The notes: generated by a model from the letters alone, not told the origin. A stretch of DNA of 64,000 bases from Bdellovibrio sp. (GCA_036676395.1 JAKFCY010000002.1:1056001-1120000), one strand, 5' to 3'. Positions 16,594 to 52,222 are shown, numbered from the stretch's first letter. A program made the numbers and translations.

Positions 16594-16676
16594 GCGGAAT
16601 GATAGATGCAAAAAAAGCGGCATAACTCTCAGTTGTTTTTAGATCAGTAGAGTGACGAGAATGATGGTGGTCCGGC

Positions 16677-16703
16677 TTATCGGATCTAATAGCGGATGTT
16701 TTA
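16677..16703 (-). promoter_or_regulatory. Sigma28 (FliA)-type promoter
   Basis: Minus strand TAAA-N15-TCCGATAA; one mismatch to the TAAA-N15-GCCGATAA consensus. Confidence 0.75.
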
Positions 16704-16708
16704 GTAAT

Positions 16709-16765
16709 TGCTTATTAAACGACGCTCGTACTTTGGGACTACATTGTAGTCTGAAAGTACGAGTG
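16709..16765. repeat. Intergenic palindromic element, copy 2
   Basis: TGCTTATTAAACGA followed by the 43-bp palindrome CGCTCGTACTTTGGGACTACATTGTAGTCTGAAAGTACGAGTG (16723-16765). Confidence 0.8.
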
Positions 16766-16776
16766 CCGAAAAGGGT

Positions 16777-24015: not shown

Positions 24016-24086
24016 GTTTCAGACTGATACGGTTTTGTAAACAAAGAGAATAATAATCCTTCAAAAATTGTCAAATATGCCGACAA
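24016..24086 (+). promoter_or_regulatory. Palindromic operator plus sigma28-type promoter of fibre gene 1
   Basis: GTTTCA-GAC-TGATAC (24016-30); GCCGACAA (24079-86) lies 7 nt before GTG 24094. Confidence 0.7.
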
Positions 24087-24093
24087 GTTACCT

Positions 24094-27000
24094 GTGGTGA
24101 ACGTACGTTGGCAGATCAAAAATCTGAATCTTTTTGCAATCGTGTTTGTATTCATATTTATGAATACACTATCAGTTTTTGCCGCACCAAATCGCACAAC
24201 CTATCAAGCTAAAATTGTAAAACCAGATGGCTATCCCCTTGAATCTTCGAGTGTAAATTTTAAATTTACGATTTTAGATCCAACCGGAAGTTGTATTTTA
24301 TATGCTGAGACTTATTCTTCAGTGAATATGTCTACAACTGGCGGATTAATTTCTTTCTCATTAGGGTCTGGAGTTAAAACATATCCAGTATCAGCGACGA
24401 CTTTTGAACAGGTTTTTTCTAATATCACGCCGACGTTATCTTGTGATGCCGGTGGGCCTCCAAGTTATTCTCCGGCCAGCAGTGATGCGCGAAAAATCGT
24501 GATGCAGTTTCATGACGGCGCTGGTTGGCAAACCTTACCAGCGATGAGTATTAATGCTGTGCCCTATGCAATGTATGCCAGTGAAGCTTCTAGCTTGAAT
24601 GGTAAAACTGATGCTGACTTCGTTCAACTTGCAGCGATGCCAACGTGTTTAACGACAGAAGCGCTTCATTACAACGGCACTAGTTTTTCGTGCGTGAATA
24701 CAGCAAGTGTTTCTGCAGCGGCAGTGGTTTCTGCTTTAGGTTATACTCCGGCAGATGCGGTGAGTGTGACAGCGCTAAGCTCTTCGCTAGCGACAACAGA
24801 TTCGGCAGTGTCTGCTGTATCAGCTTCTGTTTTTTCAGTCGCCGCTAATGTCGCTTCAGTTTCTTCAAGTGTGTTTGCTGTTTCTTCGACGGTTTCATTA
24901 TTAGCTAATACAGTTTCTGCGATCACGTCTTCGCAATGGACATCCAGCGGAACAGCAGTTTATTACAATTCTGGAAATGTGGGAATCGGCACAGATAATC
25001 CCATCACCACGTTGGAAGTGAACGGAGCAATTACGGCGACGAATGGTGCGGGCACATTAAATTTACGTGCAGGTGCTGTGCAAGATCACACTTACATGCA
25101 ATTTTTTGCTCGCAGTGCCAGTCCAACAACGCGAACAGGTTATTTTGGCTATCCGTCAGTCGGCACGAATCAGCTGAATATCTTTAATGAAACTGCAACT
25201 GGTGCTATTGGATTTGGAACTAGTGGAACCTCTCGCATGGTGATTACTTCTGCCGGCAATGTCGGTATTGGTTTACTGGCTCCAGTAACTAAATTAGAAG
25301 TTTCTGGCGGTGTGCGAATCAGTATGGAAGCCGCAGCTTGTAGTGTAAGTTACGCCGGAACTTTACGTTATAATTCTGGCTTAGTCGAATATTGTAATGG
25401 CGCTTCATGGTCAGCATTTGGTGTAGCCGGTGCAGGAATTACTTTAGTTAATGGTTCATCTTCGGGCACACAAACTTTTGTAACAGGAATTAGCGGAACT
25501 AATTTTAATATTACGACAAATAACGGAGTTCACTCGTTTAATATTCCGTTAGCAGCATCAGCTTCTGTGACTGCAGGTTTGTTATCGAATGCAGATTATG
25601 TAACTTTTAATAATAAAGTAAGTGCAACTTCATCTTCAGTGATTTCTGCATTAGGCTATGCGCCAGCAAGTGCATCAACAGTGGCAACTGTTCAGGCAGA
25701 TATTAACTCAGTGTCTGCAGCGGTTGCTGCAACAAACACAAATGTTGCAGCAGTGTCTTCAACTGTGGCCGCATTGCAATCTTCTGTGACTTCATTATCT
25801 TCAAATACGGCGGCAAGTTTTGCGGCTATTACTTCTTCGCAATGGGTAACGAGTGGTTCAACGATTAATTATTCGGCAGGTAGTGTGGGTGTGGGTACTG
25901 CGGCTCCAGTGACTAAACTAGAGATCGCAGGTGGTGTTAAAATTAGTATGGAAGCCGCAACTTGTGCTGTAAGTTTTGCTGGTACTTTACGTTATAACTC
26001 GGGTTCAGTTGAATTTTGTAATGGCACGACTTGGGCCGCTTTCGGAGTTTCAACTTCAGGTTTAACTTCGTTAAATGGATCTAGTTCACAAACGCAAACT
26101 TTTGCAAACGGCGCAACAGGTACTCAGCCTGCATATGTTACGGCAAATGGAGTTCACATTTTAAATATTCCGTTAGCGGCCACTGGTTCTGTGACTGCGG
26201 GTTTATTATCAAATGTTGATTACGTTTCATTTTCAAATAAAGTAAATGCAACAAGTGCAGCTATTATTTCTGCTTTAGGTTATACTCCTGCAAATAATGC
26301 AGCTTCAGGCACTTATGCCGTTAAATCTAATAATTTATCTGATTTAACATCAGCAACCGTAGCGCGAACTAATTTAGGCTTAGGATCGATCTCTGTATTA
26401 AATTCGGTTGATCTAAGCGGATCACAAGCGACAGGAACTTTGGCAGCAGCAAGACTACCGGCATTTAGTGGTGATGCGACCAGTTCAGTAGGTTCTGCGA
26501 TTTTAACTTTAACTTCGGTTGGTTCAGGAGTAACAAGTGGATCGCAATACACGAAAGTCACTGTTGATGGCAAAGGCCGCGTAACAAGTGGCGCGCAGTT
26601 GTCTGTAACAGATGTAACAACCGCTTTAGGTTATACTCCGGCAAGTGCTTCGGCATCTACGCAGTGGGTAACCAGTGGTACTACTATCAATTATTCAGCT
26701 GGTAATGTCGGGATCGGCACAGCTGCTCCGCAGGGCCCGCTACATATTTTATCAAGTTCACCGAATGCCATTGTTTTAGAAAGATCGAATTCTAATAATT
26801 CGCATATTGAATATAAAAATACCGCAGGTAGTGTTTACGCGGGATTAAACTCTGGGGGCTCTTATGCCATCGGGCCAAATTTGAATTTATCATCAAGCCC
26901 TTTTCTTACAGTGACTAGTGCTACAGGTAATGTGGGGATTGGTATTGCATCACCGCAAGAGCAGCTGCATTTAAGCAGAGTTTTAAAATTTACGAATAGC

Positions 27001-29562
27001 GTTGGAGTAAGTAACTTTCGTGCGCCAACAGCAGATAGTTTCAGGATTTTTAACCACGACGACCAGAGCACTGGTAATGCTTACGGCACTGGTGATAATA
27101 ACGCGATTATTTTTGAAAATGTCGACAGTAATAATCCGGCACCAGATGACAGTTTTTATTTTATAAATCATGGATCGGCTGGACCTGTGCTTGCCTTGGC
27201 CATTAAGGGAAGTGGCAATGTCGGTTTAGGCCTAACAAACCCAACTGCTAAATTACATTTAACTTCTGGTTCGACTTCAATTGCGCCAGTGAAACTGACA
27301 GCGGGTAATTTATTATCAGCTCCGCAATCGGGAGCGATTGAGTATGACGGAACATCTTTTTACGTAACTGATGGTGCAAATTCGCGTAAAGCTCTTCTTA
27401 CTGATACAAATGGTTATTACGCTGTTAATACTCTGACATCTGCCGGTCATATGATTTTAGCACCGACGGGTTCAGTTTTTGTTTCTTCGACCGCTGTTTC
27501 AACCAACTCGAACACTGGCGCATTAGTAGTGAGTGGCGGAGTAGGTGTTGGCGGAAATATTAACGCCGCTGGAAACATTTCAACTACTGCAAATATGCAA
27601 GCGGCGTCGATCACGGCGACCAGCGGATTTATTTCTCCGTATATTGCTGGTGGTGTGGCCTCAGGTGGTGCGATCACAATTGATTCAACGACAAATGCCG
27701 GTAAAGGAAATATTTATTTAAATCCTAATGGCGGCAAAGTAGGTATTGGTTATAATTCACCAGCCGGAAAACTTCATATCGGTGGATCACTGTCTGGAGC
27801 TTATCGTTCATGGATGGATAACGGTATACTGATTGGAAAATCTGGTGATAGTGATGGTGGTTACTTTGGTCTGAAAGACGAAGGCGTGAATCGTCAAGAT
27901 ACCGTGATCGCCTGGGGCGATGATGCGACTGAAACTTTAAGATTTATTCATACTGCAAGTGGTGGCGCTTCTGACGGTGCTGAAGCCATGCGAATTACGG
28001 CTGCCGGCAATGTCGGTATCGGAACATCAGCACCTGCCCAGAGATTATCGGTGAACGGTGATATGGGTATTACCGGTGATTTGAAAATGAATGGTAACGA
28101 TAGCTATATTTGGACCAACGGAACAGGTACAGGATATACAGGAATTTGGGATACAGCTAATTCTAGACCATTACTTTTTACTTCTGAAAATTCAGGCAAC
28201 GTAGGTATTAAAACGACAGCTCCAATTACAGAGCTAGATGTCAGCGGAAGTGTTTTGGTTCGTGGGCAAAATATTTTTATGAGTCATGATGCTGGTACAA
28301 ATGTGAATAATGATTATTTTAATTACGATGATAATGCAGTTTTGGGTACTGGCGGCGTGTTTTCGTTCTTTGCAGATTCTGCGCGTGGCCTAAGTTGGAC
28401 TGGCGCGAACGGTGCTATAGCAGCTCGGGCTGGGTATTTCGTAAATAACGTATCTATCGGAACATCAGCAACGACGAGAAACCTTGAAGTGAATGGTTCA
28501 ATCAATGCCGGTGGTATGGTGGCAGAGACTTTTACTTTCGGAATCGATGGCACTGTGAATGGAACGTGGGCTATTGGCTCTTTATCAAATAATGGAACTG
28601 TCGTGCATGCAACGTTTGATCTTCACGTGCATAACGGAAGCACGATTGATGCGTTGAAGTTTCAAGTAAGTCTTCCGACTTATTCAAATGGAACTTTCTA
28701 TTCAGGCTGGCAAGAGCTTCCGGTCGCATTTGGAAGCTCGGCATGGAATGGTCAGAAAAACTATGTTGTTGATGTGTTGCGTACGTCGGCCTCTTCAGGT
28801 AATCCGATTTTCTTTCGTGTCAGAAATAAAGGCGGGAATGGATCAGCTTCAAGTATGAAAGTGCGTATGACTTATAACAGTGATCAAACTTTTACCCGTA
28901 TCACTCACCAAAATACTGTCGGTACTGCATTTAATGCAGGAACTGCTGCAGCCGGTGGTCCGGTTGATGGTATGTATGGAGCGCTCGAGTATTCATTTCC
29001 GGTAGCTATTGGTCAGGGCTGGAAACCAACAAATCATGATGGTCTATTTGTTAAAAACAGTGGTTATGTCGGTATCGGCACAAGTACTCCAAGCGAGATG
29101 TTAGAAGTCAGTGGCAGTGTGAAAGCCACATCTTACTTATACACTTCTGATCGCAGATTAAAAAAAGATATCATCACTTTGCCAGATGCTTTAGCTAGCG
29201 TCTTAAAACTTCGCGGGGTAAATTTCGTTTGGAAAAACAATAATGAAAAAACCGTGGGTTTTATCGCGCAAGAAGTTGAAGAAGTTTATCCTGAACTGGT
29301 AAAAACTGATAAAGTCTCAGGTTTTAAAGCGGTTCAGTACGGAAATATCGTAGCAATTTTAGTTGAAGCGATTAAACAAGAAAACAAAGAGCGTTTAGAG
29401 GCGCAAAATCGCTGTGAAGCTCAAATTGCAAACGTGCAACGTTCAGTGGCTAGTGTCAGTGATAAATCGGATGCGCGTATTAATCAGCTTGAAAAAGAAA
29501 ATCAAGAGCTTAAAAACCGCTTAGAAAAAATCGAGAAATTCTTAAACGAAAAAGTAAAATGA
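24094..29562 (+). CDS. Giant secreted tail-fibre-like adhesin 1 with C-terminal S74 chaperone (MAT-like)
   Basis: 30-aa signal peptide; TTYQAKI..PDG..INAVPYAMYA N-domain; about 11 GxVGIGT repeats; YTSDRRLK...GFIAQEVE S74 domain plus coiled coil. Confidence 0.9.
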   Translation: MVNVRWQIKNLNLFAIVFVFIFMNTLSVFAAPNRTTYQAKIVKPDGYPLESSSVNFKFTILDPTGSCILYAETYSSVNMSTTGGLISFSLGSGVKTYPVSATTFEQVFSNITPTLSCDAGGPPSYSPASSDARKIVMQFHDGAGWQTLPAMSINAVPYAMYASEASSLNGKTDADFVQLAAMPTCLTTEALHYNGTSFSCVNTASVSAAAVVSALGYTPADAVSVTALSSSLATTDSAVSAVSASVFSVAANVASVSSSVFAVSSTVSLLANTVSAITSSQWTSSGTAVYYNSGNVGIGTDNPITTLEVNGAITATNGAGTLNLRAGAVQDHTYMQFFARSASPTTRTGYFGYPSVGTNQLNIFNETATGAIGFGTSGTSRMVITSAGNVGIGLLAPVTKLEVSGGVRISMEAAACSVSYAGTLRYNSGLVEYCNGASWSAFGVAGAGITLVNGSSSGTQTFVTGISGTNFNITTNNGVHSFNIPLAASASVTAGLLSNADYVTFNNKVSATSSSVISALGYAPASASTVATVQADINSVSAAVAATNTNVAAVSSTVAALQSSVTSLSSNTAASFAAITSSQWVTSGSTINYSAGSVGVGTAAPVTKLEIAGGVKISMEAATCAVSFAGTLRYNSGSVEFCNGTTWAAFGVSTSGLTSLNGSSSQTQTFANGATGTQPAYVTANGVHILNIPLAATGSVTAGLLSNVDYVSFSNKVNATSAAIISALGYTPANNAASGTYAVKSNNLSDLTSATVARTNLGLGSISVLNSVDLSGSQATGTLAAARLPAFSGDATSSVGSAILTLTSVGSGVTSGSQYTKVTVDGKGRVTSGAQLSVTDVTTALGYTPASASASTQWVTSGTTINYSAGNVGIGTAAPQGPLHILSSSPNAIVLERSNSNNSHIEYKNTAGSVYAGLNSGGSYAIGPNLNLSSSPFLTVTSATGNVGIGIASPQEQLHLSRVLKFTNSVGVSNFRAPTADSFRIFNHDDQSTGNAYGTGDNNAIIFENVDSNNPAPDDSFYFINHGSAGPVLALAIKGSGNVGLGLTNPTAKLHLTSGSTSIAPVKLTAGNLLSAPQSGAIEYDGTSFYVTDGANSRKALLTDTNGYYAVNTLTSAGHMILAPTGSVFVSSTAVSTNSNTGALVVSGGVGVGGNINAAGNISTTANMQAASITATSGFISPYIAGGVASGGAITIDSTTNAGKGNIYLNPNGGKVGIGYNSPAGKLHIGGSLSGAYRSWMDNGILIGKSGDSDGGYFGLKDEGVNRQDTVIAWGDDATETLRFIHTASGGASDGAEAMRITAAGNVGIGTSAPAQRLSVNGDMGITGDLKMNGNDSYIWTNGTGTGYTGIWDTANSRPLLFTSENSGNVGIKTTAPITELDVSGSVLVRGQNIFMSHDAGTNVNNDYFNYDDNAVLGTGGVFSFFADSARGLSWTGANGAIAARAGYFVNNVSIGTSATTRNLEVNGSINAGGMVAETFTFGIDGTVNGTWAIGSLSNNGTVVHATFDLHVHNGSTIDALKFQVSLPTYSNGTFYSGWQELPVAFGSSAWNGQKNYVVDVLRTSASSGNPIFFRVRNKGGNGSASSMKVRMTYNSDQTFTRITHQNTVGTAFNAGTAAAGGPVDGMYGALEYSFPVAIGQGWKPTNHDGLFVKNSGYVGIGTSTPSEMLEVSGSVKATSYLYTSDRRLKKDIITLPDALASVLKLRGVNFVWKNNNEKTVGFIAQEVEEVYPELVKTDKVSGFKAVQYGNIVAILVEAIKQENKERLEAQNRCEAQIANVQRSVASVSDKSDARINQLEKENQELKNRLEKIEKFLNEKVK
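25387..25484 (+). repeat. 98-bp perfect direct repeat shared with 32107-32204
   Basis: Base-by-base identical from GAATATTGTAATGGCGCTTC to CAAACTTTTGTAAC in fibre genes 1 and 2. Confidence 0.9.
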
Positions 29563-31025
29563 AAAAGCTTTTAGTTTTATTGCTTTTCATGCCCATGTTG
29601 ATCGCAATTAATAACCTGACTGATGGTTTTCGTATTGCTGCCAATGGCGGCGAAACAAGAGTTTACGCCAAAGACGGTGGGGCGCAAGGCGCATGTTACG
29701 CCGTCAAAAATCATCATGCGACGAATGATTTATTTGTGCCGACAAAATCCACGGCAGAGTGGACTTCATTTGTTAGTAATACTCCAACATTTGTAACTAA
29801 AACTTTATGTCAGCCAAAATCTTGTCTTGAAATTAAAAATTTAATGGGAAATCCCGCCGATGGTTTATACACCATCGATTCTGATGGTGACGGTGCGAAT
29901 ACCGCGTACCAAGCTTATTGTGATATGACCACTGATGGCGGTGGCTGGACCAGAATTTTTCGTCATCATCTGCAAGGCGGATATTTTGCGACGGTCTCTG
30001 GTGCTATCACTGCAAATATTGCAACCCCGACGGCAGATCTGTATTCAGTGTTAGATAAAATTCCTGATTTTTTAGACAGCGGAAAATATAAATTTCGCCA
30101 AACCTGGCCAGGTTATGCAAAGAAAAATATTTGGCTGCAATCGACTAATCCACTTTTGGATGTGGATGCGGCAGGAGTTGTAGCAATTGCGGTGAATGCC
30201 CATAGTGATACTAGACAGCTTTACTGGGGCGGAATTGAATTGGGTAACGGAACTCATAGCGCAACTAACGGAAACGCCTCTTTGTTAGATGGATCTGTTG
30301 AACATACCAATTGGTTTTACGGCATAGGGCAAGCCTCGGTTTGGAATTCGGGAATTCCTGCAGACACCTCAGTGTCTTCGCTTGGTGTAAGTGAAACCGT
30401 TTTATGGATTAAAGATGAAGGTGTCTACGCGTATCGTAATTCATGCAAAGCGATTTTGGATGCGGGTGAGTCAACCGGAAATGGACTTTACACGATTGAC
30501 CCGGGCAGTATGGGTTCACCGCTTCAAGTTTACTGTGACATGACCAGCGATGGTGGTGGCTGGACGCGAGCTTTTTATCACACAGCCTCGGGATCGCTTT
30601 TTGTGAACAATGCAGAAGCGCTTTCAAGCAATCAGGCAGCACCACTGACGACAACAAAATATTCTATTTTAAGTCGCCTGTCAGGATTTTTGCGTGCCGG
30701 AAAATTTGAATTAAAAATAGATTGGCCAGCTAGTCCGAATCCGAATATTAGAAATTGGTGGACACAAACTAGTGATTTTACTTCGCAACCCGTGGCAGGT
30801 TATATCGGCGTTTCAATCGGCACATCAACCCAAGGTTGGGGCGGGCTAGAGTACGGAACTCCGGGCACAACGCTTGCCGATGGTTCGGTGGGAACAGGTT
30901 CTTATTGGTATGCGATAGGTTTAAATGCACTTTGGGGAGCAAACAATCCGGGGTTGCCTTCGTCGGAAGAAGTCGCTGGCGCGCCAGACACTGGCGTGCC
31001 CCGAGTCGAACTCTGGGTTAAGTAA
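29559..31025 (+). CDS. Secreted protein with two fibrinogen-like (YCDxxxxGGGW) domains, copy 1
   Basis: Signal peptide; two SC..I...G.Y.ID...YCDMT.DGGGW units; ATGA overlap with fibre 1. Confidence 0.88.
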   Translation: MKKLLVLLLFMPMLIAINNLTDGFRIAANGGETRVYAKDGGAQGACYAVKNHHATNDLFVPTKSTAEWTSFVSNTPTFVTKTLCQPKSCLEIKNLMGNPADGLYTIDSDGDGANTAYQAYCDMTTDGGGWTRIFRHHLQGGYFATVSGAITANIATPTADLYSVLDKIPDFLDSGKYKFRQTWPGYAKKNIWLQSTNPLLDVDAAGVVAIAVNAHSDTRQLYWGGIELGNGTHSATNGNASLLDGSVEHTNWFYGIGQASVWNSGIPADTSVSSLGVSETVLWIKDEGVYAYRNSCKAILDAGESTGNGLYTIDPGSMGSPLQVYCDMTSDGGGWTRAFYHTASGSLFVNNAEALSSNQAAPLTTTKYSILSRLSGFLRAGKFELKIDWPASPNPNIRNWWTQTSDFTSQPVAGYIGVSIGTSTQGWGGLEYGTPGTTLADGSVGTGSYWYAIGLNALWGANNPGLPSSEEVAGAPDTGVPRVELWVK

Positions 31026-31046
31026 TCTTAACATGATTTAGGTTTT

Positions 31047-31118
31047 GTTTCATTCTGAAACAGTCCAGTAAACAAAAAACAAAATTAATCTTCATTTTAA
31101 TGTCAAAAATACCGACAA
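31047..31118 (+). promoter_or_regulatory. Palindromic operator plus sigma28-type promoter of fibre gene 2
   Basis: GTTTCA-TTC-TGAAAC (31047-61); ACCGACAA (31111-18) lies 7 nt before GTG 31126. Confidence 0.7.
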
Positions 31119-31125
31119 GAATACT

Positions 31126-38069: not shown

Positions 38070-38070
38070 T

Positions 38071-38143
38071 GTTTCATTGTGAAACGAAAACTTAAAGATT
38101 TCGCGCCAAAAAAGTTTTATAAAAGCGTCAAAAATACCGACAA
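38071..38143 (+). promoter_or_regulatory. Palindromic operator plus sigma28-type promoter of fibre gene 3
   Basis: GTTTCA-TTG-TGAAAC (38071-85); ACCGACAA (38136-43) lies 7 nt before in-frame GTG 38151. Confidence 0.7.
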
Positions 38144-38150
38144 GTTAAGA

Positions 38151-42515: not shown

Positions 42516-42593
42516 CCTGAGAAACTAGACCAGTAAGCGATTCACCTTGAGGCAAAACCTGTTTCGAATTGAGTCAATTCCTGCATCTAAAAT

Positions 42594-42621
42594 TCATTAA
42601 CAAATTCAATTATTCCGATAA
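42594..42621 (+). promoter_or_regulatory. Sigma28-type promoter of fibre gene 4
   Basis: TCCGATAA (42614-21) lies 7 nt before in-frame GTG 42629. Confidence 0.68.
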
Positions 42622-42628
42622 GTTAAGA

Positions 42629-45600
42629 GTGAATTTACCGCCACGCAAGAATAAAACTCTTTCGATGTTTTTATTTTTCGTATTCATTTTTATGAATGCG
42701 ATGTCTGCTTTTGCGGGACCACGACACACGACCTATCAAGCAAAAATTATTAAACCCGATGGGCTTCCGCTAGAAGCAGCAAGTGTTAATTTTAAATTTT
42801 CTATTCTTGATCCAGCAGGTGCTTGTGTTGTTTATGCTGAAACTTTTTCTTCAGTGAACATGTCAGGGGCGGGCGGGTTGATTTCTTTCTCGCTAGGTTC
42901 TGGAGTTAAAACTTATCCTGTAAGTGCTACAACTTTTGAACAAGCGTTTTCAAACATTACTCCAAGTTTGTCTTGTGATGTTGGTGGGCCAGTAAGTTAT
43001 TCTCCGCTTGCCGATGATGTTAGAAAAATCGTGATGCAGTTTCATGATGGTTTAGGTTGGCAAACATTACCCGCAATGAATATCAATGCCGTACCTTACG
43101 CAATGTATGCAAACGATGCGCAAAAATTAGGTGGCGTCAGTGCCACAGCTTTTGTGCAAGATACAGATCTAGCGACATGTGCTGGCGGTCAGGCTTTATT
43201 TTATAACGGCACAAGTTTTTCTTGCGTTGCAGTTGGTGGTGGCGGAGTGACTTCTTCGACGATCTCTACAGCACTGGGTTACACCCCGGCAGATGATGCT
43301 GGCGTTGCAACGATTGCTTCAAATGTTTCTAGCGTATCGACCACTGTATTTTCTGTTTCATCAACAGTGGCCAGTTTATCAAGCTCTGTTTCAACATTAT
43401 CTAACACGGTGGCTGCTTCTTTTGCGGCGATTACTAATTCGCAATGGATAACCAGTGGCACAACGATTAGTTACACCAGCGGCAAGGTCGGTATCGGCAC
43501 GAGTGATCCAAAAGGTGCGTTAGATATAATTTCATCGGGCACTACGAATTTAGGCAACGTTGTAAATCTGCCATTACAACTTCGTGGAAGTGGTAGTGAT
43601 ACTACGGCGACAGGTTTAGCGATATATAATCCAAGTAATCCGACAGGTTCTTATTTTGGTATTACTTTTTTAGGTGCTTCTTTTACCGGAACGCGATTAG
43701 GCGTACCAAATCTGAGTAATGGTGTACTCTTGTACGGTAATTCTGCGGGATCACAGGCTGTATCTTTCGTAGCCATCGGAACTTCAACTGCGGCTCCTAT
43801 TTATCTATCAACGAATAACGTTGTCCGCCAAACGATCGCACCTTCTGGCTATGTCGGTATTGGAATAACTACTCCGGTTACAAAACTAGATGTCAGCGGT
43901 GGTGTGCGTATCGGTATGGAAGCAGGTTCTTGCGCAGCAGATTTAGCGGGAACACTAAGATACACTTCGGGCAATGTTGAATATTGTAACGGCACAACAT
44001 GGCAAGCTTTCGGCACAGCTGGCGCAATTACCAGTTCGTCAATTGCAGCAGCGCTCAGTTATACTCCGGCAAATACAACAACCGTAGAAACATCATTTAC
44101 AACATTAACAAATTTATTTAATACGACAGGCACTTCAGTTACAACGCTTACAAGCACAGTTAATAATTTATCTTCATCATATACTATTTTAGCTTCAGCA
44201 GTTTCTGGTATTACAAGTTCACCGTGGGTTACAAGCGGAACAGCGATTAGTTATTCAGCTGGAAATGTCGGTATCGGAACTAGTGCGCCAACAAAGTTAT
44301 TTCAAATCAATTGGTCACCTTCAGCTAGTTGGGAAATCCAGCATGAATTCGATGTTGCCAGTAATGGTCCGGCGCTTAATTCTGCATACAATCTTGGTCC
44401 TGCCGGTGAAGGTCGGTTTAATTTTTCTAAAGCACGTGGCACCATGGCTAATCCAACCGGTGTTTTAAATAATGATTTTTTAGGAACTATTTCTTTTCGC
44501 GGTGCTAATGCATCTGGAACACTTTTACATGCAGCCATTATTCGCGCGATCGCGGCACAAGATTTTGTAAATACATCTGCTGGATCACATTTAGTTTTTC
44601 AGACATCAAGTTCTGGATCAGCTACGCCGTCTGAAAAAGTCAGAATCGATTCGCAAGGTAACGTCGGTATCGGCATTACATCTCCAATCGCGGCATTAGA
44701 TATCAAAGCAGGAACGTCTTCTTCGGCAGCATTAAAATTAACTTCAGGTACTTTATTAACTTCGCCGCAATCAGGAGCTATCGAATACGATGGTTTTAAT
44801 TTTTACAAAACAAATGGCGCTGGTGTGCGTAGTGTGATTGGTTCTTCTGAAGTATCTTCAACAATGAGTTTGATGGACTCAGGCGCGACATTCGGTTCAG
44901 GTCATAAAACGGTCATGGGTGGATATGATCCCAATGGTTTAGTCTGGCATATTGGTGTGAGTGGTACTCAAGCTTTAGATATTAATTCTCGTTATCCAGG
45001 TGGGCCGATCACGATGACTATTGGTGGCTCTGAAATGATGCGCGTGATGGGAAGTACTGGTTTTGTCGGCATCGGCACTCAGACTCCAACTCAAAAATTA
45101 GACGTGCATGGTTACATGCGCTCGGCTGCAGGTTCTGGTGGAACACCAACTGATGGCGGACGCTTATATTTTGCCACGAATTCTTCAGGGCCAAATTATG
45201 ATTTATCTTATGTTGGTGGCTACACTGATCAGGCAGGTAATGATGGATCTGGTGCTGGTTCTCGCGGTGGACTTGTTTTTGCCACAAAATCTACAACCGG
45301 GGCCTCTGCTGCGACTGAAAAAATGCGTATCGATTTAAACGGTCAACTTGGATTGGGTATAGATGTTCCGCTTGTTCCCTTGCATGTACAAAAAGATGCG
45401 CCCAGTGGTTTAGTTGCTTATTTTCAAGGTGTCGGCTCGGGAGGAACCATTGTCGGAACAAATTCAAGCTATCCGACTTCGGGCGGTTTGGTGCAAGGTA
45501 TTGATGCTACTGGTGCGGTCGGTACGTTAGCCTTAAATCCAATAGGTGGATTGGTAGGTTTAGGCACGGCATCGCCTCAAGGTAAATTCAACGTCGATCT

Positions 45601-47362
45601 TATAACTGGCATTAATACCAGTGAAGTTATTCAGGCCTACACATTTTCTTCTTCTGCAATTTGGGGTTTACGTTTATCACAGCGAAATAACAACAATGTA
45701 ATTTCGTATGACTGGAAAACCAGAAATGCCTCATCGACTGATATTTTAGCTATGACCATGGCCGCTTCTGGCCTAATTGGAGTCGGAACAAATGCGCCTC
45801 AAAAAGGTTTGCATGTGGTCTCGGGTGCAATGGTTGGAACAACCGATGGTTTTCCGACAGAATATGCATCAGTACATAACGAATTTAATTCTGGCGTATT
45901 AAAAAAATGGACAGAAACTTCTGGCAACCATGTGAATGCCGGAACATATTCATTGGTATCTCCTGTATCTAATAGTGCCAAGGCCAGTCACAGCTTAGTA
46001 AATATTTTATTCATGGATGTAGCTTCGGGCGTGACAGTGACCGGTTCAAATCATAGTTTTTATAATTTTTCTTCACGTAATAGATACGCAGCTAATACCG
46101 ATAATGGCCATGTGAATTTAATGGTTGGTATTCGCAATGAATACGGCCACGAAAACAGTGTTCCGGCAAATTCTCCAACAACAAGCCAAATATACGGGGC
46201 TTTATTTGTTCCGAATGCGTTTACCGGTACGATTTCTAATTTGTATGATCTTTATATCAGTGCGCCGACTGGCACTGGTACGATAGGTCAGCATTATTCT
46301 ATTTACCAAGCCGCTACGAGCGCCACGAACTATTTTGCTGGGCGTACTGGTATAGGCACTTCAGCTCCGGATGGTTCATTGCATATTGTGACTTCGTCAT
46401 TACAGTCGAACTCTCCAGCGTCGGGAATTTTCTTCGGAAAAAGTTTAGCTGATGATTACCAAATGCAATTAACTCAAAATGGCGGCACACCTCATATTGA
46501 TTTTAGTCGTCTTTCTGGCCGCGACTATGATGCACGAATTTCAACTCCGGCAAACAGCACTTTATCTTTAGGAACAGCGTCGCAAAGTATGTTGTTAAAT
46601 TTATTTAATAGTTATGTAGGTATTGGCACGTTGACTCCGACCCGAGCCTTGCAAGTAGGAACAACTTCAGGCTGGCAAGATGGTTCAGGAATTTTAATTA
46701 AAGGTTCAAATCCTGGAGTTGAATTTGCCGATACACAAACTGTTCCCCAACGTTGGTTAGTCGCCAACGGTGTGACTGTACCCAACGATGGAAATCTTGG
46801 CTTAGCGTTCAATGTAAACACCAGTACGCATAATATCGTAGTCACATCAGGTGGCTTAGTCGGGATCGGCACGTTAACTCCCGATGATAAATTTATGGTG
46901 TATAACGGAGTATCAACTGGCCGCTATACAACGACCGGTTGGACACACGTTTCTGATGCAAGATACAAACATGACATCAGCTCGTTAAATAATTCGTTAG
47001 AAAAAATTCTGCAACTTCGCGGGGTAGAATATAAATTTAACAATGATCCAGAAAATAAAAATCAATTAGGCTTCATCGCCCAAGAAGTTGAACCGATTTT
47101 TCCTGAAGTTGTTTCGACTGATAAAAAAGGTTTCAAATCGATGGTGTACAGCAATCTAGTCGCACCATTGGTCGAGGCCGTGAAATCACTGTATGTCCAA
47201 TTAAAAGAAAATAGTCTCGAAACGAGACAAAATTCTCGCGACATAGCATCGCTTCAGCAAGAAAATGAAAAACTTAAAAACGAAAATCTGCAAAAAGCCA
47301 AAGAACTTGACGACGTCAAATCGCGCCTAGAGCGTATTGAGAAAATGTTAAATTCTAAGTAA
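42629..47362 (+). CDS. Giant secreted tail-fibre-like adhesin 4 with S74 chaperone (start moved from 42569)
   Basis: Shared N-domain; about 11 GxVGIGT repeats; VSDARYK...GFIAQEVE; 29-aa signal peptide from GTG 42629. Confidence 0.88.
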   Translation: MNLPPRKNKTLSMFLFFVFIFMNAMSAFAGPRHTTYQAKIIKPDGLPLEAASVNFKFSILDPAGACVVYAETFSSVNMSGAGGLISFSLGSGVKTYPVSATTFEQAFSNITPSLSCDVGGPVSYSPLADDVRKIVMQFHDGLGWQTLPAMNINAVPYAMYANDAQKLGGVSATAFVQDTDLATCAGGQALFYNGTSFSCVAVGGGGVTSSTISTALGYTPADDAGVATIASNVSSVSTTVFSVSSTVASLSSSVSTLSNTVAASFAAITNSQWITSGTTISYTSGKVGIGTSDPKGALDIISSGTTNLGNVVNLPLQLRGSGSDTTATGLAIYNPSNPTGSYFGITFLGASFTGTRLGVPNLSNGVLLYGNSAGSQAVSFVAIGTSTAAPIYLSTNNVVRQTIAPSGYVGIGITTPVTKLDVSGGVRIGMEAGSCAADLAGTLRYTSGNVEYCNGTTWQAFGTAGAITSSSIAAALSYTPANTTTVETSFTTLTNLFNTTGTSVTTLTSTVNNLSSSYTILASAVSGITSSPWVTSGTAISYSAGNVGIGTSAPTKLFQINWSPSASWEIQHEFDVASNGPALNSAYNLGPAGEGRFNFSKARGTMANPTGVLNNDFLGTISFRGANASGTLLHAAIIRAIAAQDFVNTSAGSHLVFQTSSSGSATPSEKVRIDSQGNVGIGITSPIAALDIKAGTSSSAALKLTSGTLLTSPQSGAIEYDGFNFYKTNGAGVRSVIGSSEVSSTMSLMDSGATFGSGHKTVMGGYDPNGLVWHIGVSGTQALDINSRYPGGPITMTIGGSEMMRVMGSTGFVGIGTQTPTQKLDVHGYMRSAAGSGGTPTDGGRLYFATNSSGPNYDLSYVGGYTDQAGNDGSGAGSRGGLVFATKSTTGASAATEKMRIDLNGQLGLGIDVPLVPLHVQKDAPSGLVAYFQGVGSGGTIVGTNSSYPTSGGLVQGIDATGAVGTLALNPIGGLVGLGTASPQGKFNVDLITGINTSEVIQAYTFSSSAIWGLRLSQRNNNNVISYDWKTRNASSTDILAMTMAASGLIGVGTNAPQKGLHVVSGAMVGTTDGFPTEYASVHNEFNSGVLKKWTETSGNHVNAGTYSLVSPVSNSAKASHSLVNILFMDVASGVTVTGSNHSFYNFSSRNRYAANTDNGHVNLMVGIRNEYGHENSVPANSPTTSQIYGALFVPNAFTGTISNLYDLYISAPTGTGTIGQHYSIYQAATSATNYFAGRTGIGTSAPDGSLHIVTSSLQSNSPASGIFFGKSLADDYQMQLTQNGGTPHIDFSRLSGRDYDARISTPANSTLSLGTASQSMLLNLFNSYVGIGTLTPTRALQVGTTSGWQDGSGILIKGSNPGVEFADTQTVPQRWLVANGVTVPNDGNLGLAFNVNTSTHNIVVTSGGLVGIGTLTPDDKFMVYNGVSTGRYTTTGWTHVSDARYKHDISSLNNSLEKILQLRGVEYKFNNDPENKNQLGFIAQEVEPIFPEVVSTDKKGFKSMVYSNLVAPLVEAVKSLYVQLKENSLETRQNSRDIASLQQENEKLKNENLQKAKELDDVKSRLERIEKMLNSK

Positions 47363-47391
47363 CAATCAAATTATATTTTGCTCTATGAGCT

Positions 47392-47418
47392 TAACCAAAG
47401 TGCTAGAAATTCCGATAG
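47392..47418 (+). promoter_or_regulatory. Sigma28-type promoter of fibre gene 5
   Basis: TAAC-N15-TCCGATAG, 7 nt before in-frame GTG 47426. Confidence 0.65.
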
Positions 47419-47425
47419 GTTAGCT

Positions 47426-50400
47426 GTGAATACGGCTCGTAAGCAGATGCGTTTTTTATTGTTAGTTGCGGTCGCGACAATGTTGTTGTCGGCAATTAAC
47501 ACTTTTGCAGGCCCAGGGCATACAACCTATCAAGCAAAAATTATTAAACCCGATGGATACCCCCTTGAAAATTCAAGTGTGAATTTTAAATTTACTATTT
47601 TAGATCCGGCCGGTGCGTGTATTTTATATTCTGAAACTTATTCTTCGGTGAATATGACTTCAACGGGCGGATTAATTTCTTTCTCGTTAGGATCAGGTGT
47701 AAAAACTTATCCTGTATCAAGCCCGACATTTGAAGATGTGTTTTCAAATATTACTCCTAACTTATCTTGTGATGCTGGCGGTCCTGTAAGTTATTCGCCG
47801 TTAGCAACTGATACCAGAAAAATCGTGATGCAGTTTCATGACGGTGCCGGCTGGCAGACGCTTCCTGCAATGAATATCAATGCAGTACCTTACGCGATGT
47901 ATGCCAATGAAGCGCTGAAATTAAATGGCAAAGCCGATACTGATTTTGTGCAAGTATCAGTTGTGCCAACATGTACGGCCAGTGAAGCCATTCGTTATAA
48001 CGGCACAAGTTTTTCTTGTGTGGACGTGGGCGGCAGTGGAGCAGTCTCTTCGGGTTCAGTGATTACCGCTTTAGGTTACACTCCTGCTGACGGGGCAAGC
48101 TTAACCACAATCACTTCTAACGTATCGACTGTTTCATCAACAGTGTTTTCAGTTTCATCGACGGTTTCTTCATTAACAAATTCTGTGGCAGCCAGTTTTG
48201 CGGCGATCACTTCATCGCAGTGGCTAACCTCAGGCACGACCATCAGTTATCAATCTGGAAATGTGGGTATCGGTACATCATCAAATGTAACAAAACTAGT
48301 TGTATCAGGTGGTGTGCGCATCAGTATGGAGCCCGCATCGTGTGATGCAACCCTTGCCGGAACTCTACGTTATAATTCAGGGCTTGTTGAATTTTGTAAT
48401 GGCACAGTCTGGTCTGCATTCGGGGTGGCCGGTGCAGGAATCACGTCAGTGAATGGCTCAACTTCAGGGTCGCAAACTTTTGCCGCCGGAATCACCGGAA
48501 CTGTTTTTAATATAACTTCAAATAATGGTGTTCACACTTTTAATATTCCGTTAGCAGCTTCTGGTTCTGTGACTGCGGGATTATTATCAAATGCAGATTA
48601 CGCAACTTTCGCAAATAAAGTCAGTGCAACAAGTGCTGCCGTCGTTTCAGCTTTAGGTTATACACCTGCAAGTGCAACAACAGTTTCAGCTTTAACTTCT
48701 AATTTGGCAGCGGTTTCTGCCTCAGTTGCGGCGATCACTTCGTCACAATGGGTGACGAGTAGCACCTCAATTAATTACGTTGCAGGCAATGTCGGTGTCG
48801 GCACTGCAAATCCAACAGGATCTTTACATCTTGCTCTGAATAACTCGGGAACTGCAATGTCATCGATATCAGATGCGTTTATTCTGCAAAATAAAAATGC
48901 TGCGGCAAATGCTTTAACTTCAATAATGTTTGCCAATCAAGATGGTTTTGGTACGGGGCAGATCACAGCTTTACAAAACACAGGTAATTTCGGTTCGCAG
49001 ATAATTTTCGGTACAAAATCTGGCGTCGGTGGAGCATGGAATACTTCGCAAATGGTTTTAGATACAAATGGTCATGTTGGTATTGGCACATCGACTCCGC
49101 GGGCACGTCTTGATGTTTCGGGCAGTGTAGTCATTGGTAATCTTGCCGCCAATAATGCCTCTCTTACAATTTATACACCAGATAGTGGATCTGCTTCGCA
49201 TGGGGTTGTGCTTATCGATAAAGATGCTGGCTACGGATCATGGCAAAATCCATCAGGTCTTGATGGGATTGATGCAGATAGTTCGGGAACAGTCACAGGG
49301 TGGGGTCCACTTTATTTCAACTATTATTCAAGCGGCAATATTGATTTTAATAATGGCGGCGGTCACTCTTCATTTAATGGCGGCGTGGCGATCGGAATGG
49401 GAGACGCGCCAACTGCTAAATTGCATATCGCAGGTGGAACTTCTTCGACAGCAGCTTTAAAATTTGTATCTGGAACTCTGTTAACTACACCGCAAACAGG
49501 TGCTGTAGAATATAATGGGTTTAATCTTTATCTAACTGATGGCGCCGGTATTCGTAGAGCAATTGCCACGAGCTCTAGTTCTGGAACAATGGATAATGTT
49601 AGCAATATCAATGCATCGACTAACATGACGTTAACGCCGGTAGGATCCGTTATTGTGTCTTCGACAACGATATCAACATCAGCAAATACCGGAGCCCTGG
49701 TTGTCAAAGGTGGTCTTGGAGTGGCCGGAACAATCAACACCGCAGGAAGTTTGAATGTATCGGGAACAGCCGCGATTGCTGGATCACTGAATTTATCATC
49801 TATGACCAGCGGCAGTGTACTTTTTGCCGGAGCCAATGGAACAGTTACTCAAAATAATTCTAGTTTATATTGGGACGGGGCAAACAGACGTTTGGGAATA
49901 GGTACGAATGCGCCGCAAATGAAACTTCATGTTGCTTCAGGTCCAGTATTAATTGGCGCAAACATCGGCGGCTATTCAACCGAGGGGCTGATTGTAAATA
50001 CCAGCTCGCAAAGAAGTGATATTAGTTTTATGCATTCATCAACTGGTGTTACTCAGACGTCAGACGGTTTTAATATAGCCCTGGTTTTTAATAATGTTGA
50101 TTTTGATCTTCGTGAAAATGGTTACATGCGTTTTTTAACAAACAGTGCCGAACAAGTTCGTATTACTTCAACAGGTAACGTCGGTATAGGCACGACTGCT
50201 CCAACCCAAAAATTAGATGTGATGGGATATATAAAAACATCGAACTACGGATCCTCAGCTGGTTCTGCGGCGGGGTTGTATTTATACAGATCTCAGGGGG
50301 GCTCGGCAGGAGCTGAAGTTGCACCTGGAAATGGAGCCGGAGTTGGATTTCTTTCTTTTGCTGGTTATCGAGGTGACGCGACTCTGGGTACAGGAGCACT

Positions 50401-52222
50401 TATTGATGCTCAGACGCCGGTAGTTTCAGGGGCTTGGACAACTTCATCCACTCCTGCTTATCTGCGTTTTTTAACAACTGATGTTGGATCAACGGCAGGT
50501 GTTGTACGCATGACGATCAAAGAAAATGGAGACGTCGGCATCGGTACGTCGACTCCGGGAGCGCGTTTGCAGGTAGCAACACCTGCAAGCGGAGGCGTAA
50601 ATAATCGCTGGGTTTCTGGTAATTCAAATGCTGATTTAATTGATATGACAGGCATCAATGGCGATATGTTTTTAGATCACAGTGTTGGCGCGCGCATGAC
50701 CGCTTCAACATCAACGACATTAAATCATGCAGCGACATTTAAAATTGATGGCGCACCAAATATAGATGCTGCCGCTTCTTCGACATTAACTGTAAATAAT
50801 CTCTACGCCCTATGGGTTGAAGAGGGCACATCACTTTTCGGCGGTAATATTGGCGTCGGAGTTTCAGGAACTCCGTCTTCATACGGCCATGGTGGAACAA
50901 ATAAATTTATCGAAATTCAAAACCCAGGCACCACTGTAAATGCACAATCGCACTTATTTTTAACGACAGGCGTGTCTGCGATTAGTGGAACTTCAATTGG
51001 AACCTTAACATGGGCCCAGCCAAATGTTTCCAGCGCCAGAAAAGAAGTGGCGTGGATTAGTGCAAGTTCTGACTCTGCCAGTGGCGCAGCGCCAGCAGCA
51101 AATTTTCAAATTCATACTCGCTCTATGACTGATGCCTCTCCGATTGAGCGCATGCGCATAACCGCTTCGGGCCGGGTAGGTATCGGGGTATCAAATCCTA
51201 TCACATTATTTTCAAACGTCGCTGCCACGGCTAATCATGCGAATGTCGGTGATCAGGGTGGCACAGGTGAAAATAGCCATTCACTGATTTGGTCTACTGC
51301 GGGAGCTGGTTATTCTGCAGCCATCGTGAATACTTCAATTTCACCCGGAGCTAACGGGTTAAACCTCAGAACTTTGGGTGCAACGTCGAATTACACGATT
51401 CTTTCAGCCGGCGTCGGTGTAAGTTCTACGGCAAATAGTTATGATGTTCTGACTGTAAAAGCGAACCGACAAGTCGGCATCAATCAAGCTTCTCCATTGG
51501 GAACTTTAACAGTTAACGGAACATTTTCACTTCAGCCATCGACGAATAACCATATTTATATGGAATTTTATGCACGCACTGCAACGCCAACAACACGCTC
51601 AGGCTGGTTTGGTTATGGTGCATCGGGAACAAATTTACTTTCAATCACTAATGAAACTGCCGGGCATATTAATATTGATCCAGAAGGTGGCGGTTTCGTA
51701 GGTGTTGATAACATAAATCCAACGCGCTTACTGCACGTCGGAAATTCAGCCATTGCGGCCGGAACACCGGTGGCTAATTTTCAAAATGCTGATGGAACCT
51801 GTACATTAACGCCAGCAGCTGCGGGTTCGGGAATTGCCTGTTCTTCAGATGAACGATTAAAAGAAAACTTTATTGATGTTGGCGGAACTAAAGCCTTAGA
51901 AAAAATATTAAAATTCCAAGCCGTAAGTTACAATTTTAAAACAGCAAAAGATTCTGACCGGCACACAGGTTACCGCGCTCAACAGGTCCAAAAAATATTA
52001 CCCGAGATCGTGCGTACGGATGACAATGGTTTTTTTCAGGTTTATTACGATGCGCTCATCCCATGGATCACCGAGGCCATTAAAGAAATGTATTCTTCAC
52101 AACAAACGCAAGCGCGCGAGATCGCTTCAGTGAAGGCCGAGAACGCTGAAATCAAAGCAGAGAATGCGAAACTAAAAGAACGTCTAGATCGCTTAGAAAA
52201 AGCATTCAACGACAAAAAATAG
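47426..52222 (+). CDS. Giant secreted tail-fibre-like adhesin 5 with S74 chaperone (start moved from 47378)
   Basis: Shared N-domain; about 11 GxVGIGT-like repeats; CSSDERLK...GYRAQQVQ; 28-aa signal peptide from GTG 47426. Confidence 0.88.
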   Translation: MNTARKQMRFLLLVAVATMLLSAINTFAGPGHTTYQAKIIKPDGYPLENSSVNFKFTILDPAGACILYSETYSSVNMTSTGGLISFSLGSGVKTYPVSSPTFEDVFSNITPNLSCDAGGPVSYSPLATDTRKIVMQFHDGAGWQTLPAMNINAVPYAMYANEALKLNGKADTDFVQVSVVPTCTASEAIRYNGTSFSCVDVGGSGAVSSGSVITALGYTPADGASLTTITSNVSTVSSTVFSVSSTVSSLTNSVAASFAAITSSQWLTSGTTISYQSGNVGIGTSSNVTKLVVSGGVRISMEPASCDATLAGTLRYNSGLVEFCNGTVWSAFGVAGAGITSVNGSTSGSQTFAAGITGTVFNITSNNGVHTFNIPLAASGSVTAGLLSNADYATFANKVSATSAAVVSALGYTPASATTVSALTSNLAAVSASVAAITSSQWVTSSTSINYVAGNVGVGTANPTGSLHLALNNSGTAMSSISDAFILQNKNAAANALTSIMFANQDGFGTGQITALQNTGNFGSQIIFGTKSGVGGAWNTSQMVLDTNGHVGIGTSTPRARLDVSGSVVIGNLAANNASLTIYTPDSGSASHGVVLIDKDAGYGSWQNPSGLDGIDADSSGTVTGWGPLYFNYYSSGNIDFNNGGGHSSFNGGVAIGMGDAPTAKLHIAGGTSSTAALKFVSGTLLTTPQTGAVEYNGFNLYLTDGAGIRRAIATSSSSGTMDNVSNINASTNMTLTPVGSVIVSSTTISTSANTGALVVKGGLGVAGTINTAGSLNVSGTAAIAGSLNLSSMTSGSVLFAGANGTVTQNNSSLYWDGANRRLGIGTNAPQMKLHVASGPVLIGANIGGYSTEGLIVNTSSQRSDISFMHSSTGVTQTSDGFNIALVFNNVDFDLRENGYMRFLTNSAEQVRITSTGNVGIGTTAPTQKLDVMGYIKTSNYGSSAGSAAGLYLYRSQGGSAGAEVAPGNGAGVGFLSFAGYRGDATLGTGALIDAQTPVVSGAWTTSSTPAYLRFLTTDVGSTAGVVRMTIKENGDVGIGTSTPGARLQVATPASGGVNNRWVSGNSNADLIDMTGINGDMFLDHSVGARMTASTSTTLNHAATFKIDGAPNIDAAASSTLTVNNLYALWVEEGTSLFGGNIGVGVSGTPSSYGHGGTNKFIEIQNPGTTVNAQSHLFLTTGVSAISGTSIGTLTWAQPNVSSARKEVAWISASSDSASGAAPAANFQIHTRSMTDASPIERMRITASGRVGIGVSNPITLFSNVAATANHANVGDQGGTGENSHSLIWSTAGAGYSAAIVNTSISPGANGLNLRTLGATSNYTILSAGVGVSSTANSYDVLTVKANRQVGINQASPLGTLTVNGTFSLQPSTNNHIYMEFYARTATPTTRSGWFGYGASGTNLLSITNETAGHINIDPEGGGFVGVDNINPTRLLHVGNSAIAAGTPVANFQNADGTCTLTPAAAGSGIACSSDERLKENFIDVGGTKALEKILKFQAVSYNFKTAKDSDRHTGYRAQQVQKILPEIVRTDDNGFFQVYYDALIPWITEAIKEMYSSQQTQAREIASVKAENAEIKAENAKLKERLDRLEKAFNDKK

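Follow-up and report, generated by a model that had tools for sequence, protein, structure and literature searches.

The closest described relatives of the genes treated here are the mosaic adhesive trimer (MAT) fibres of predatory bacteria, a family defined in Bdellovibrio bacteriovorus HD100 with 21 members, 13 with and 8 without an S74 domain, all of which carry a shared N-terminal domain (N-domain), a beta-rich unit of ~130 amino acids (aa) that immediately follows the signal peptide (Caulton et al. 2024, PMC10769870). In HD100, MATs are fibres built as trimers intertwined over their full length, they are surface displayed and one of them binds Proteus-type glycans, self-cleavage of Bd3182 was demonstrated at S782, and independent folding of the tips was suggested to aid 'tip swapping' (PMC10769870). 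S74 fibres and spikes are also known from phages, as in the K1F endosialidase and the T5 L-shaped fibre, with a self-cleaving intramolecular chaperone (PMC10769870). Beyond HD100, a review reports that MAT composition varies between strains (PMC13689555), Peredibacter sp. HCB2-198 has 29 MATs, 20 of them contiguous (PMC13147790), and a P. exovorus member is listed in the supplement of the HD100 study, in the table after Table S1 (PMC10769870). The MAT family, its occurrence in the Pseudobdellovibrio clade and the fact that its genes cluster have already been published; here we describe a MAT gene array within 64,000 nucleotides (nt) of Bdellovibrio sp. DNA (GCA_036676395.1, JAKFCY010000002.1:1056001-1120000; hereafter the window, with positions counted from its first letter) and compare it with the same array in relatives.

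We consider it likely that five S74-type MAT genes of a Pseudobdellovibrio-clade predator form a chromosomal array at this locus, the first two translationally coupled to lectin-type genes with tandem fibrinogen-related domains (FReDs), and that the array diversifies by recombination. An earlier note, made from the sequence alone, had described positions 24016-52222 as an array of five co-oriented genes of about 1450-1830 aa. Five co-oriented fibre genes are indeed present, as open reading frames (ORFs) of 1478-1827 aa that all lie on the + strand (24094-52222; Table 1). The end of the proposed interval holds, while its start falls 78 nt upstream of the first start codon, and the row is not uninterrupted: two FReD genes, previously missed, follow fibre genes 1 and 2, giving seven + strand genes in the interval.

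The five fibres are new members of the known S74-type MAT family. The shared N-domain of roughly 150 aa proposed in the earlier note corresponds in all five to the NCBIfam model NF053851 (Bdello_MAT_N, the N-domain of 'mosaic adhesive trimer family chimeric fiber protein'), at 153-162 bits against a cut-off of 60 and with 159-162 of the 162 profile positions covered. Its S74 chaperone call likewise passes curated models, Pfam Peptidase_S74 (PF13884) matching 5/5 proteins (E 2.4e-14 to 5.5e-19, 53.8-68.6 bits, cut-off 22). Every S74 domain starts with SDxxxK, the distance from the Ser to the C-terminus being 124-143 residues. At the other end, the N-terminal ~265 aa are 65-77% identical to those of gene 1 and include putative signal peptides (by eye, a basic stretch, then 12-15 hydrophobic residues, then AFA followed by GP or VFA followed by AP).

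Between these constant ends, module comparison confirmed the mosaic build that had been proposed for the fibre middles. The linker expression G.[VIL]G[IVL]G matches genes 1-5 at 10, 11, 8, 9 and 7 sites, against a background of ~0.1 per protein in residue shuffles (max 3) and 1 match per 10749 aa in 32 other window ORFs; the gene 1 match at aa 1148 is not a true linker. The linkers delimit 8-12 segments per fibre protein, close to the 9-12 variable modules first suggested. In the PDB, the fibres match by sequence the tip of the T4 long tail fibre (6f45) and two solved trimeric MAT structures, one of bd2133 (8ond, E 9.4e-7) and one of a Bd3182 fragment (8ojn, E 0.0035), and an atlas search with the gene 1 tip module (aa 1305-1656) gave a mere lead, only unnamed or 'adhesin' clusters at 0.93-0.94. 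Like HD100 S74 MATs such as Bd3182, the array fibres thus combine the N-domain, a long modular shaft and a C-terminal S74 domain with SDxxxK. The arrangement differs: the 13 S74 MATs of HD100 are 760-1660 aa long with, judged by gene number, at most two adjacent (bd0704/0705, bd3266/3267; PMC10769870 Table S1), whereas the window holds five of ~1450-1830 aa in one array.

The S74 domain and the shaft modules also match phage tail-fibre families (tail-fibre PHROGs), which would suit a decayed prophage or a tailocin tail-fibre region. We consider such an origin extremely improbable. With phage S74 fibres the array proteins have in common an intramolecular chaperone that is predicted to cleave itself off. 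Unlike phage fibres, the array genes lie on a cellular chromosome, with a putative Sec signal, a predator-specific N-domain in all five genes and no virion. The 30 flanking ORFs are, in a Pfam scan, housekeeping genes (ruvCAB, lpxC, uvrD, mreC, PBP2, rodA etc.) with no capsid, terminase, baseplate, sheath or integrase gene among them, in agreement with the earlier note, which had seen no capsid, terminase or integrase genes nearby. In addition, no tRNA or Rfam matches were found at the locus, and its chromosomal position is kept in four genomes.

One scan of species-representative genomes with an N-domain alignment, covering +/-10 kb around pattern matches, returned 51 loci, all of them in Pseudobdellovibrio or Bdellovibrio sp. 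records or in Bdellovibrionota bins. Downstream of uvrD, the array also occurs in three related genomes of the Pseudobdellovibrio clade, namely the bins LC001 and concoct_18 and the complete genome of Pseudobdellovibrio sp. HCB154. The closest relative is LC001 (97% aa identity in the gene 1 N-domain). On its contig JAKFBS010000004.1, collinearity with the window, at 88-91% nt identity, extends from the dus gene past uvrD as far as the gene 5 end. The LC001 array encodes fibre 1 (1992 aa), a FReD protein (491 aa), fibre 2 (1828 aa), a second FReD protein (486 aa) and fibres 3-5 (1581, 1688 and 1598 aa), and continues after fibre 5 with a sixth fibre gene that is absent from the window. In HCB154, uvrD is followed by a fibre of 1764 aa, a FReD protein of 491 aa and fibres of 1715, 1733, 1446 and at least 385 aa, a layout shared by concoct_18. 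Counted as lower bounds within the regions covered by the scan, HCB154 has at least 21 N-domains, in clusters of 1, 2, 5, 2, 1, 1, 1, 3, 2 and 3, and Ca. B. qaytius at least 9, in clusters of 1, 1, 2, 1, 1, 1, 1 and 1; tandem arrays are therefore usual in HCB154, where the uvrD array is the largest.

To compare the window with LC001, we aligned the seven gene pairs as protein and as DNA. Gene order is kept, and four module-sized cassettes are replaced or inserted (Table 1). The left edge of the variable site in gene 1 lies 191 nt from a linker, at an ALGY(T/A)PA motif (by eye), and in gene 2 the two modules at aa 808-985 retain 26-36% aa identity to LC001, with six 200-nt windows that have no LC001 match. 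Synonymous divergence (dS) is 0.2-0.5 in most modules, compared with 0.33 in uvrD and 0.40 in the fumarase gene, but reaches saturation at aa 808-985 of gene 2 and aa 1119-1255 of gene 3, and 1.2-1.5 at aa 1-290 of FReD gene 1. The saturated and high-dS segments therefore have a much older common ancestor, which means that they were imported by recombination and did not arise by fast point change. In a sliding scan against LC001 (284 windows), 16 windows had a non-collinear best match and 11 had no match.

Exchange between copies is evident in the FReD genes. LC001 FReD 1 is 85-91% identical to window FReD 2 over its first two-thirds and 90-92% identical to window FReD 1 over its last third, codons ~32-300 of window FReD 2 are closer to LC001 FReD gene 1 than to LC001 FReD gene 2, and 8 consecutive FReD 2 windows of the sliding scan find their best match in LC001 FReD 1; judged by these alignments, one FReD gene is chimeric between the two copies. 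The unit consisting of S74 end, FReD gene and next N-domain, 69% identical over 2979 nt, represents an older duplication. All five N-domains of the window pair with their positional LC001 counterparts in the N-domain tree (Shimodaira-Hasegawa-like approximate likelihood ratio test, SH-aLRT, 95-100), and there has therefore been no recent homogenisation, while that of the sixth LC001 gene clusters with the one from the fourth gene in the HCB154 array, which fits loss of this gene in the window's lineage.

A comparison of array content across related genomes, as the earlier note had suggested, thus turned up differing module content, the four cassettes, the chimeric FReD gene and the additional gene in LC001 only. 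Module content is largely different in HCB154, and at the level of the clade we counted 137 modules, with 31 shared families and 38 singletons. Read in this way, the relatives show an array that changes by recombination, through swapping, insertion and deletion of whole modules, conversion between copies, and gain and loss of genes.

Some further similarities within the clade were recorded. Genes 1 and 2 share a cysteine-bearing 'A' module (25288-25688 vs 32008-32408) that is 85.5% identical over 401 nt, compared with ~70% between copies elsewhere, and whose best matches in LC001 cross between genes 1 and 2; gene conversion at an earlier time may have left this tract. In one Ca. B. qaytius fibre gene (L030, 7985-9397), counterparts of the tip modules of window genes 4 (45770-46852) and 5 (51170-51844), 66% and 63% identical in aa, adjoin each other, a case of cross-species module re-assortment. 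The S74 C-terminal region upstream of the FReD gene is near-invariant across the clade, with long identical runs and 81% mean column identity in six sequences (window 29011-29559 and 36100-36606; L001 15344-15892; L021 8962-9468; L002 14651-15199; L010 2514-3062), whereas the N-domains of the FReD-adjoining fibres are only ~67% identical to HCB154.

Both LC001 and concoct_18 are metagenome-assembled and the region is repetitive, and the differences described above might accordingly be artefacts of mis-assembly, caused by repeats or co-existing strains, of an array that is really stable. However, the copies are only 65-85% identical at the nt level and hence too diverged to be mixed up during assembly, the examined sequence of neither genome contains a counterpart of the replaced cassettes, all reading frames are open, and module content differs in the complete genome of HCB154 as well. 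We therefore regard an artefact of this kind as very improbable.

The earlier note had gone further and proposed that the constant GxVGIGT linkers could drive module exchange. Recombination, and an enrichment of its edges at linkers, are borne out: of the 8 cassette edges between the window and LC001, 6 are no more than 60 nt away from a linker start (permutation test, P=0.007), and in a second, independent pair, HCB154 vs concoct_18 (11 low-identity blocks counted, one at the alignment start dropped), the enrichment is only marginal, with 10/22 edges near linkers and 6.0 expected (P=0.05). If the linkers themselves served as recombination substrates, they would drive frequent ongoing shuffling among the five array genes, an explanation that also draws on eight true linker pairs with 15-19 identical bases and on the similarity and crossed matches of the 'A' module. 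RecA-type exchange, however, usually needs roughly 20-30 nt of identity. Across the 48 sites matching the linker expression (1128 pairs), the median exact in-register DNA run is 5 nt, no true linker pair exceeds 19 nt, and the sole longer run, of 54 nt, is a non-linker site within the shared 'A' module. With at most 19 identical bases, linkers therefore mark the junctions and are not established as drivers of exchange. Moreover, the replaced cassettes have no donor inside the array, no long tracts above 90% identity occur between copies, the N-domains pair by position with LC001, and module order is otherwise the same in both genomes, so that we find linker-driven shuffling unlikely. In our reading, the cassettes come from diverged alleles or from other loci by way of recombination, and junctions at module borders survive as foldable fibres; short linker microhomology may aid the exchange.

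Programmed variation, whether by an invertase shufflon or a diversity-generating retroelement, was considered and rejected. No recombinase or reverse transcriptase Pfam domain was found in the window ORFs and the genes are co-oriented, and a shufflon in particular was rejected because inverted repeats amount to only 3 weak pairs (20-38 nt, 71-85% complementary).

The two FReD genes begin within the preceding fibre genes, the ATG of FReD 1 and of FReD 2 overlapping the TGA of fibre genes 1 and 2, respectively, as ATGA. FReD 1 matches Pfam Fibrinogen_C (E 1.7e-15) in two stretches and FReD 2 is likewise matched twice, and NCBIfam GGGWT_bact (NF040941; YCDxxxxGGGW motif) also finds two stretches in each (125.9 bits for FReD 1, 122.4 for FReD 2, cut-off 30). 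A structure model of FReD 1 (33 sequences; predicted local distance difference test, pLDDT, 87.3; predicted template-modelling score, pTM, 0.85) consists of two globular halves and a short N-terminal domain. Compared with the PDB by Foldseek, this model gave 142 matches at E<=0.001, the best ones being FReDs (FIBCD1, tenascin-C/R, ficolins, tachylectin 5A, angiopoietins), with template-modelling (TM) scores on target of 0.5-0.63 over ~220-240 columns, but root-mean-square deviations of 5-7 A and 14-19% identity; a sequence search of the PDB likewise returned tenascin, XEEL/intelectin and FIBCD1. The array FReDs have the YCDxxxxGGGW motif and whole-domain fold in common with FReD lectins (FIBCD1, ficolins, tachylectin 5A, the tenascin FReD, intelectins), and differ from them in being bacterial, in carrying two domains per chain after an N-domain of ~65 aa, in their loose structural fit, and in a family that also has larger multi-domain forms (~740, ~930 and ~1190 aa).

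B. bacteriovorus and Bdellovibrio sp. NC01 have full-length FReD relatives (55-57% identity) that go by the name 'fibrinogen-like YCDxxxxGGGW domain-containing protein'. More widely, tandem fibrinogen-like proteins of ~490, ~740, ~930 and ~1190 aa are named in Bdellovibrio, Bacteriovorax, Peredibacter and Halobacteriovorax (relatives P0025-P0051, P0121-P0182), the ~930 and ~1190 aa forms in the latter three genera. Named as they are across four predator genera, secreted multi-FReD proteins therefore look like a general trait of these predators. In the literature searched we found no paper joining fibrinogen-like proteins with these predators, which is not proof of absence from print; the word 'fibrinogen' does not occur in the accessible passages of PMC11656739, nor in the main text or readable supplement of PMC10769870, in contrast to the coupling of FReD genes to fibres seen here. 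Among the loci from the N-domain scan, FReD genes were found only in the uvrD array, in 4/4 genomes carrying it.

Each fibre gene is preceded by a promoter-like element, which we found by aligning the five upstream regions and then running the pattern AWNCCGAYARG over the window. The pattern has 6 matches vs 0.82 expected, all on the + strand, 5 of which directly precede fibre genes while the sixth (43637-43647) lies inside gene 4. In all five cases CCGAYA is followed after exactly 8 nt by GTG (at 24094, 31126, 38151, 42629 and 47426), an arrangement kept at the LC001 and HCB154 counterparts. Because of this arrangement and of the matching ORF starts in a relative, the starts that the ORF tool assigned to genes 3-5 are probably too far upstream, the true ones probably being the last three of these GTG codons. 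The elements resemble the attack-phase FliA (sigma-28) consensus of B. bacteriovorus, TTAAG-N16-CCGATA, which accounts for 92/140 attack-phase promoters and whose regulon includes 'cell-surface anchors' (PMC3627812), and the sequence at the -35 position of gene 5 agrees with 4/5 consensus bases. The FReD genes have no FliA-like element. The element points to predicted attack-phase expression of each fibre gene.

Coupling and promoter-like element together would allow a bolder proposal, which we nevertheless find distinctly unlikely: that the first fibres of the array and the tandem-FReD proteins coupled to them form a two-part adhesin, the separately encoded lectin riding on the fibre or deployed with it, in a FliA-controlled cassette-exchange array that adjusts surface recognition in a lineage of epibiotic predators. 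ATGA or near-abutting fibre-FReD coupling is kept in 4/4 genomes with the array; these share one orthologous locus, and the coupling therefore counts as one origin and one duplication. The proposal draws further on the S74 end beside the FReD gene, which is much better conserved in the clade than the N-domains are. The FReD gene persists where the adjoining tip cassette is swapped, and FReD 1 matches phrog_16097, annotated as a tail-fibre part (E 2.4e-24). A complex prediction for three copies of the C-terminal 183 aa of gene 1 with FReD 1 residues 40-488 gave no support, with a score of 0.12 vs a mark of 0.32, which speaks neither for nor against binding. No fibre-FReD fusion with PF13884 was seen among the matches listed (the best 120 of 163 longer FReD relatives), a weak negative in that long proteins crowd the word filter.

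Under the interpretation that we favour, a MAT array diversifying by recombination, the FliA-like element before each GTG would place expression in the attack phase, the signal peptide would export the fibres and the conserved N-domain would, as in HD100, hold them at the predator surface. There the shaft would extend as its string of linker-delimited modules, and the S74 chaperone would aid trimer folding, cut itself off at the Ser of SDxxxK and expose the tip. The repertoire would diversify, as the relatives indicate, via replacement, insertion and deletion of modules, conversion between copies, and gain and loss of whole genes, with junctions mostly at linkers, probably since only module-border junctions yield a fibre that folds, and with linker microhomology as a possible aid.

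By analogy with HD100, the array fibres would serve prey recognition. They might instead have a role in substrate attachment, biofilm or cell-envelope structure, with the array variation unrelated to prey, and the small or absent predation defects of HD100 single-gene deletions (PMC10769870) and the narrower prey range of Peredibacter despite its having more MATs than HD100 (PMC13147790) would both suit such a role. Nevertheless, the MAT family sits on the predator surface with one member binding prey glycans (PMC10769870), an attack-phase-type promoter element precedes every fibre gene, and the companion FReD genes have a lectin-type fold, leaving a non-prey role quite improbable in our view.

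Several observations weigh against the favoured interpretation. Surface display, trimer state, self-cleavage and prey binding are all carried over from HD100 (PMC10769870), and P. exovorus JSS and Ca. B. qaytius are epibiotic predators without prey invasion (PMC11656739); the host clade thus includes epibiotic predators, unlike HD100, and the invasion roles known from HD100 may therefore not transfer. As to expression, the -35 sequences of genes 1-4 (CTTCA, TTCAT, TTTAT, TCATT) keep 2-3/5 consensus bases and are thus weak in 4/5 genes, a -10 element at 8 nt from GTG would imply a leaderless transcript, and scans of the array for sigma-70 promoters and terminators found no excess over shuffles (38 vs 40.5, 19 vs 19.3, 19 vs 23.8, 14 vs 11.0). 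As to recombination, dN/dS is 0.03-0.42 in all measurable modules, with no sign of diversifying point substitution; no cassette donors were found in the array or the 51 loci (tblastn of six variable segments, best match 63% aa), and blastn of the array against the non-syntenic loci gave at most 84% nt identity over 125 nt. The remaining 2/8 cassette edges lie 130-190 nt from a linker, at ALGY(T/A)PA and GALVVxGGxGVxGN motifs (by eye), the edge enrichment in the second genome pair is weaker than in the first, and in the metagenome bins mis-joined co-existing strains could mimic some of the differences.

Table 1. Coordinates in the window of the array genes, the sites that differ from LC001, and the promoter-like elements.
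Feature	Position	Strand	Details
MAT fibre gene 1	24094..29562	+	1822 aa; N-domain aa 20-179; 9 true linkers; S74 from Ser1685 (SDRRLK); C-terminal coiled coil
FReD gene 1	29559..31025	+	488 aa; hydrophobic N-terminus, ~65 aa N-domain, two fibrinogen-related domains
MAT fibre gene 2	31126..36609	+	1827 aa; N-domain aa 19-180; 11 linkers; S74 from Ser1704 (SDERLK)
FReD gene 2	36606..38069	+	487 aa; 70% aa identical to FReD 1
MAT fibre gene 3	38079..42515	+	1478 aa from first possible start; N-domain aa 45-206; 8 linkers; S74 from Ser1336 (SDRRLK)
MAT fibre gene 4	42569..47362	+	1597 aa; N-domain aa 39-199; 9 linkers; S74 from Ser1462 (SDARYK)
MAT fibre gene 5	47378..52222	+	1614 aa; N-domain aa 35-194; 7 linkers; S74 from Ser1490 (SDERLK); last array gene in window
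Variable site, gene 1	25688..25903	+	window aa 532-604 correspond to LC001 aa 532-774 (~170 aa extra there); right edge 24 nt from linker
Replaced cassette, gene 2	33366..34098	+	aa 748-992; 46% nt identity to LC001; right edge 17 nt from linker
Replaced cassette, gene 3	41430..41904	+	window aa 1118-1276 correspond to LC001 aa 1095-1379; 28% nt identity; edges 3 and 60 nt from linkers
Module insertion site, gene 4	44673..44707	+	LC001 has one extra 87-aa linker-to-linker module; edges 16 and 50 nt from linker
FliA (sigma-28)-like -10 element, gene 1	24077..24087	+	ATGCCGACAAG; CCGACA, 8 nt, then GTG start of fibre gene 1
FliA-like element, gene 2	31109..31119	+	pattern match upstream of fibre gene 2
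FliA-like element, gene 3	38134..38144	+	before probable GTG start 38151
FliA-like element, gene 4	42612..42622	+	before probable GTG start 42629
FliA-like element, gene 5	47409..47419	+	-35-like TTAAC at N16; before probable GTG start 47426

Outside the array, two adjoining, slightly overlapping ORFs of 242 and 298 aa lie on the - strand (8561-9289 and 9277-10173), of which only the second (298 aa) matches Pfam Competence (ComEC), with dprA nearby (12462-13313); the pair could represent a single competence channel gene that appears as two, or else a genuine split. Compared with window 16194-16778, LC001 has ~1.1 kb extra (merged 980-2649), with a 344-aa ORF that has a hydrophobic N-terminus, and window 15536-16777 contains no ORF of at least 150 aa.

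In the literature searched, we found no module-level comparison of one MAT array between relatives, no FReD partner genes and no promoter-like element per gene. A parallel is Peredibacter sp. HCB2-198, where MAT genes are likewise contiguous and content differs between related strains; it belongs to another genus, its MATs were chosen by GenBank annotation, and the accessible parts of the study contain no module-level or breakpoint analysis (PMC13147790).

These findings extend the known MAT picture to the Pseudobdellovibrio clade and overturn nothing known. MAT fibres are the current best candidates for Bdellovibrio-like prey recognition, and prey range matters for the use of such predators against resistant bacteria. 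The locus provides a clean natural comparison, in which the differences between related arrays comprise whole modules, a converted stretch of one gene and the presence of one further gene, and concrete leads for testing come from the coupled FReD genes and from the promoter-like element that precedes each fibre gene. In the classic picture, said to go back to Tetart et al. in 1998, specificity segments of T-even distal fibres and adhesins are exchanged between conserved short motifs. With whole-module differences and no diversifying point substitution, the MAT repertoire described here therefore appears to evolve like phage tail fibres.

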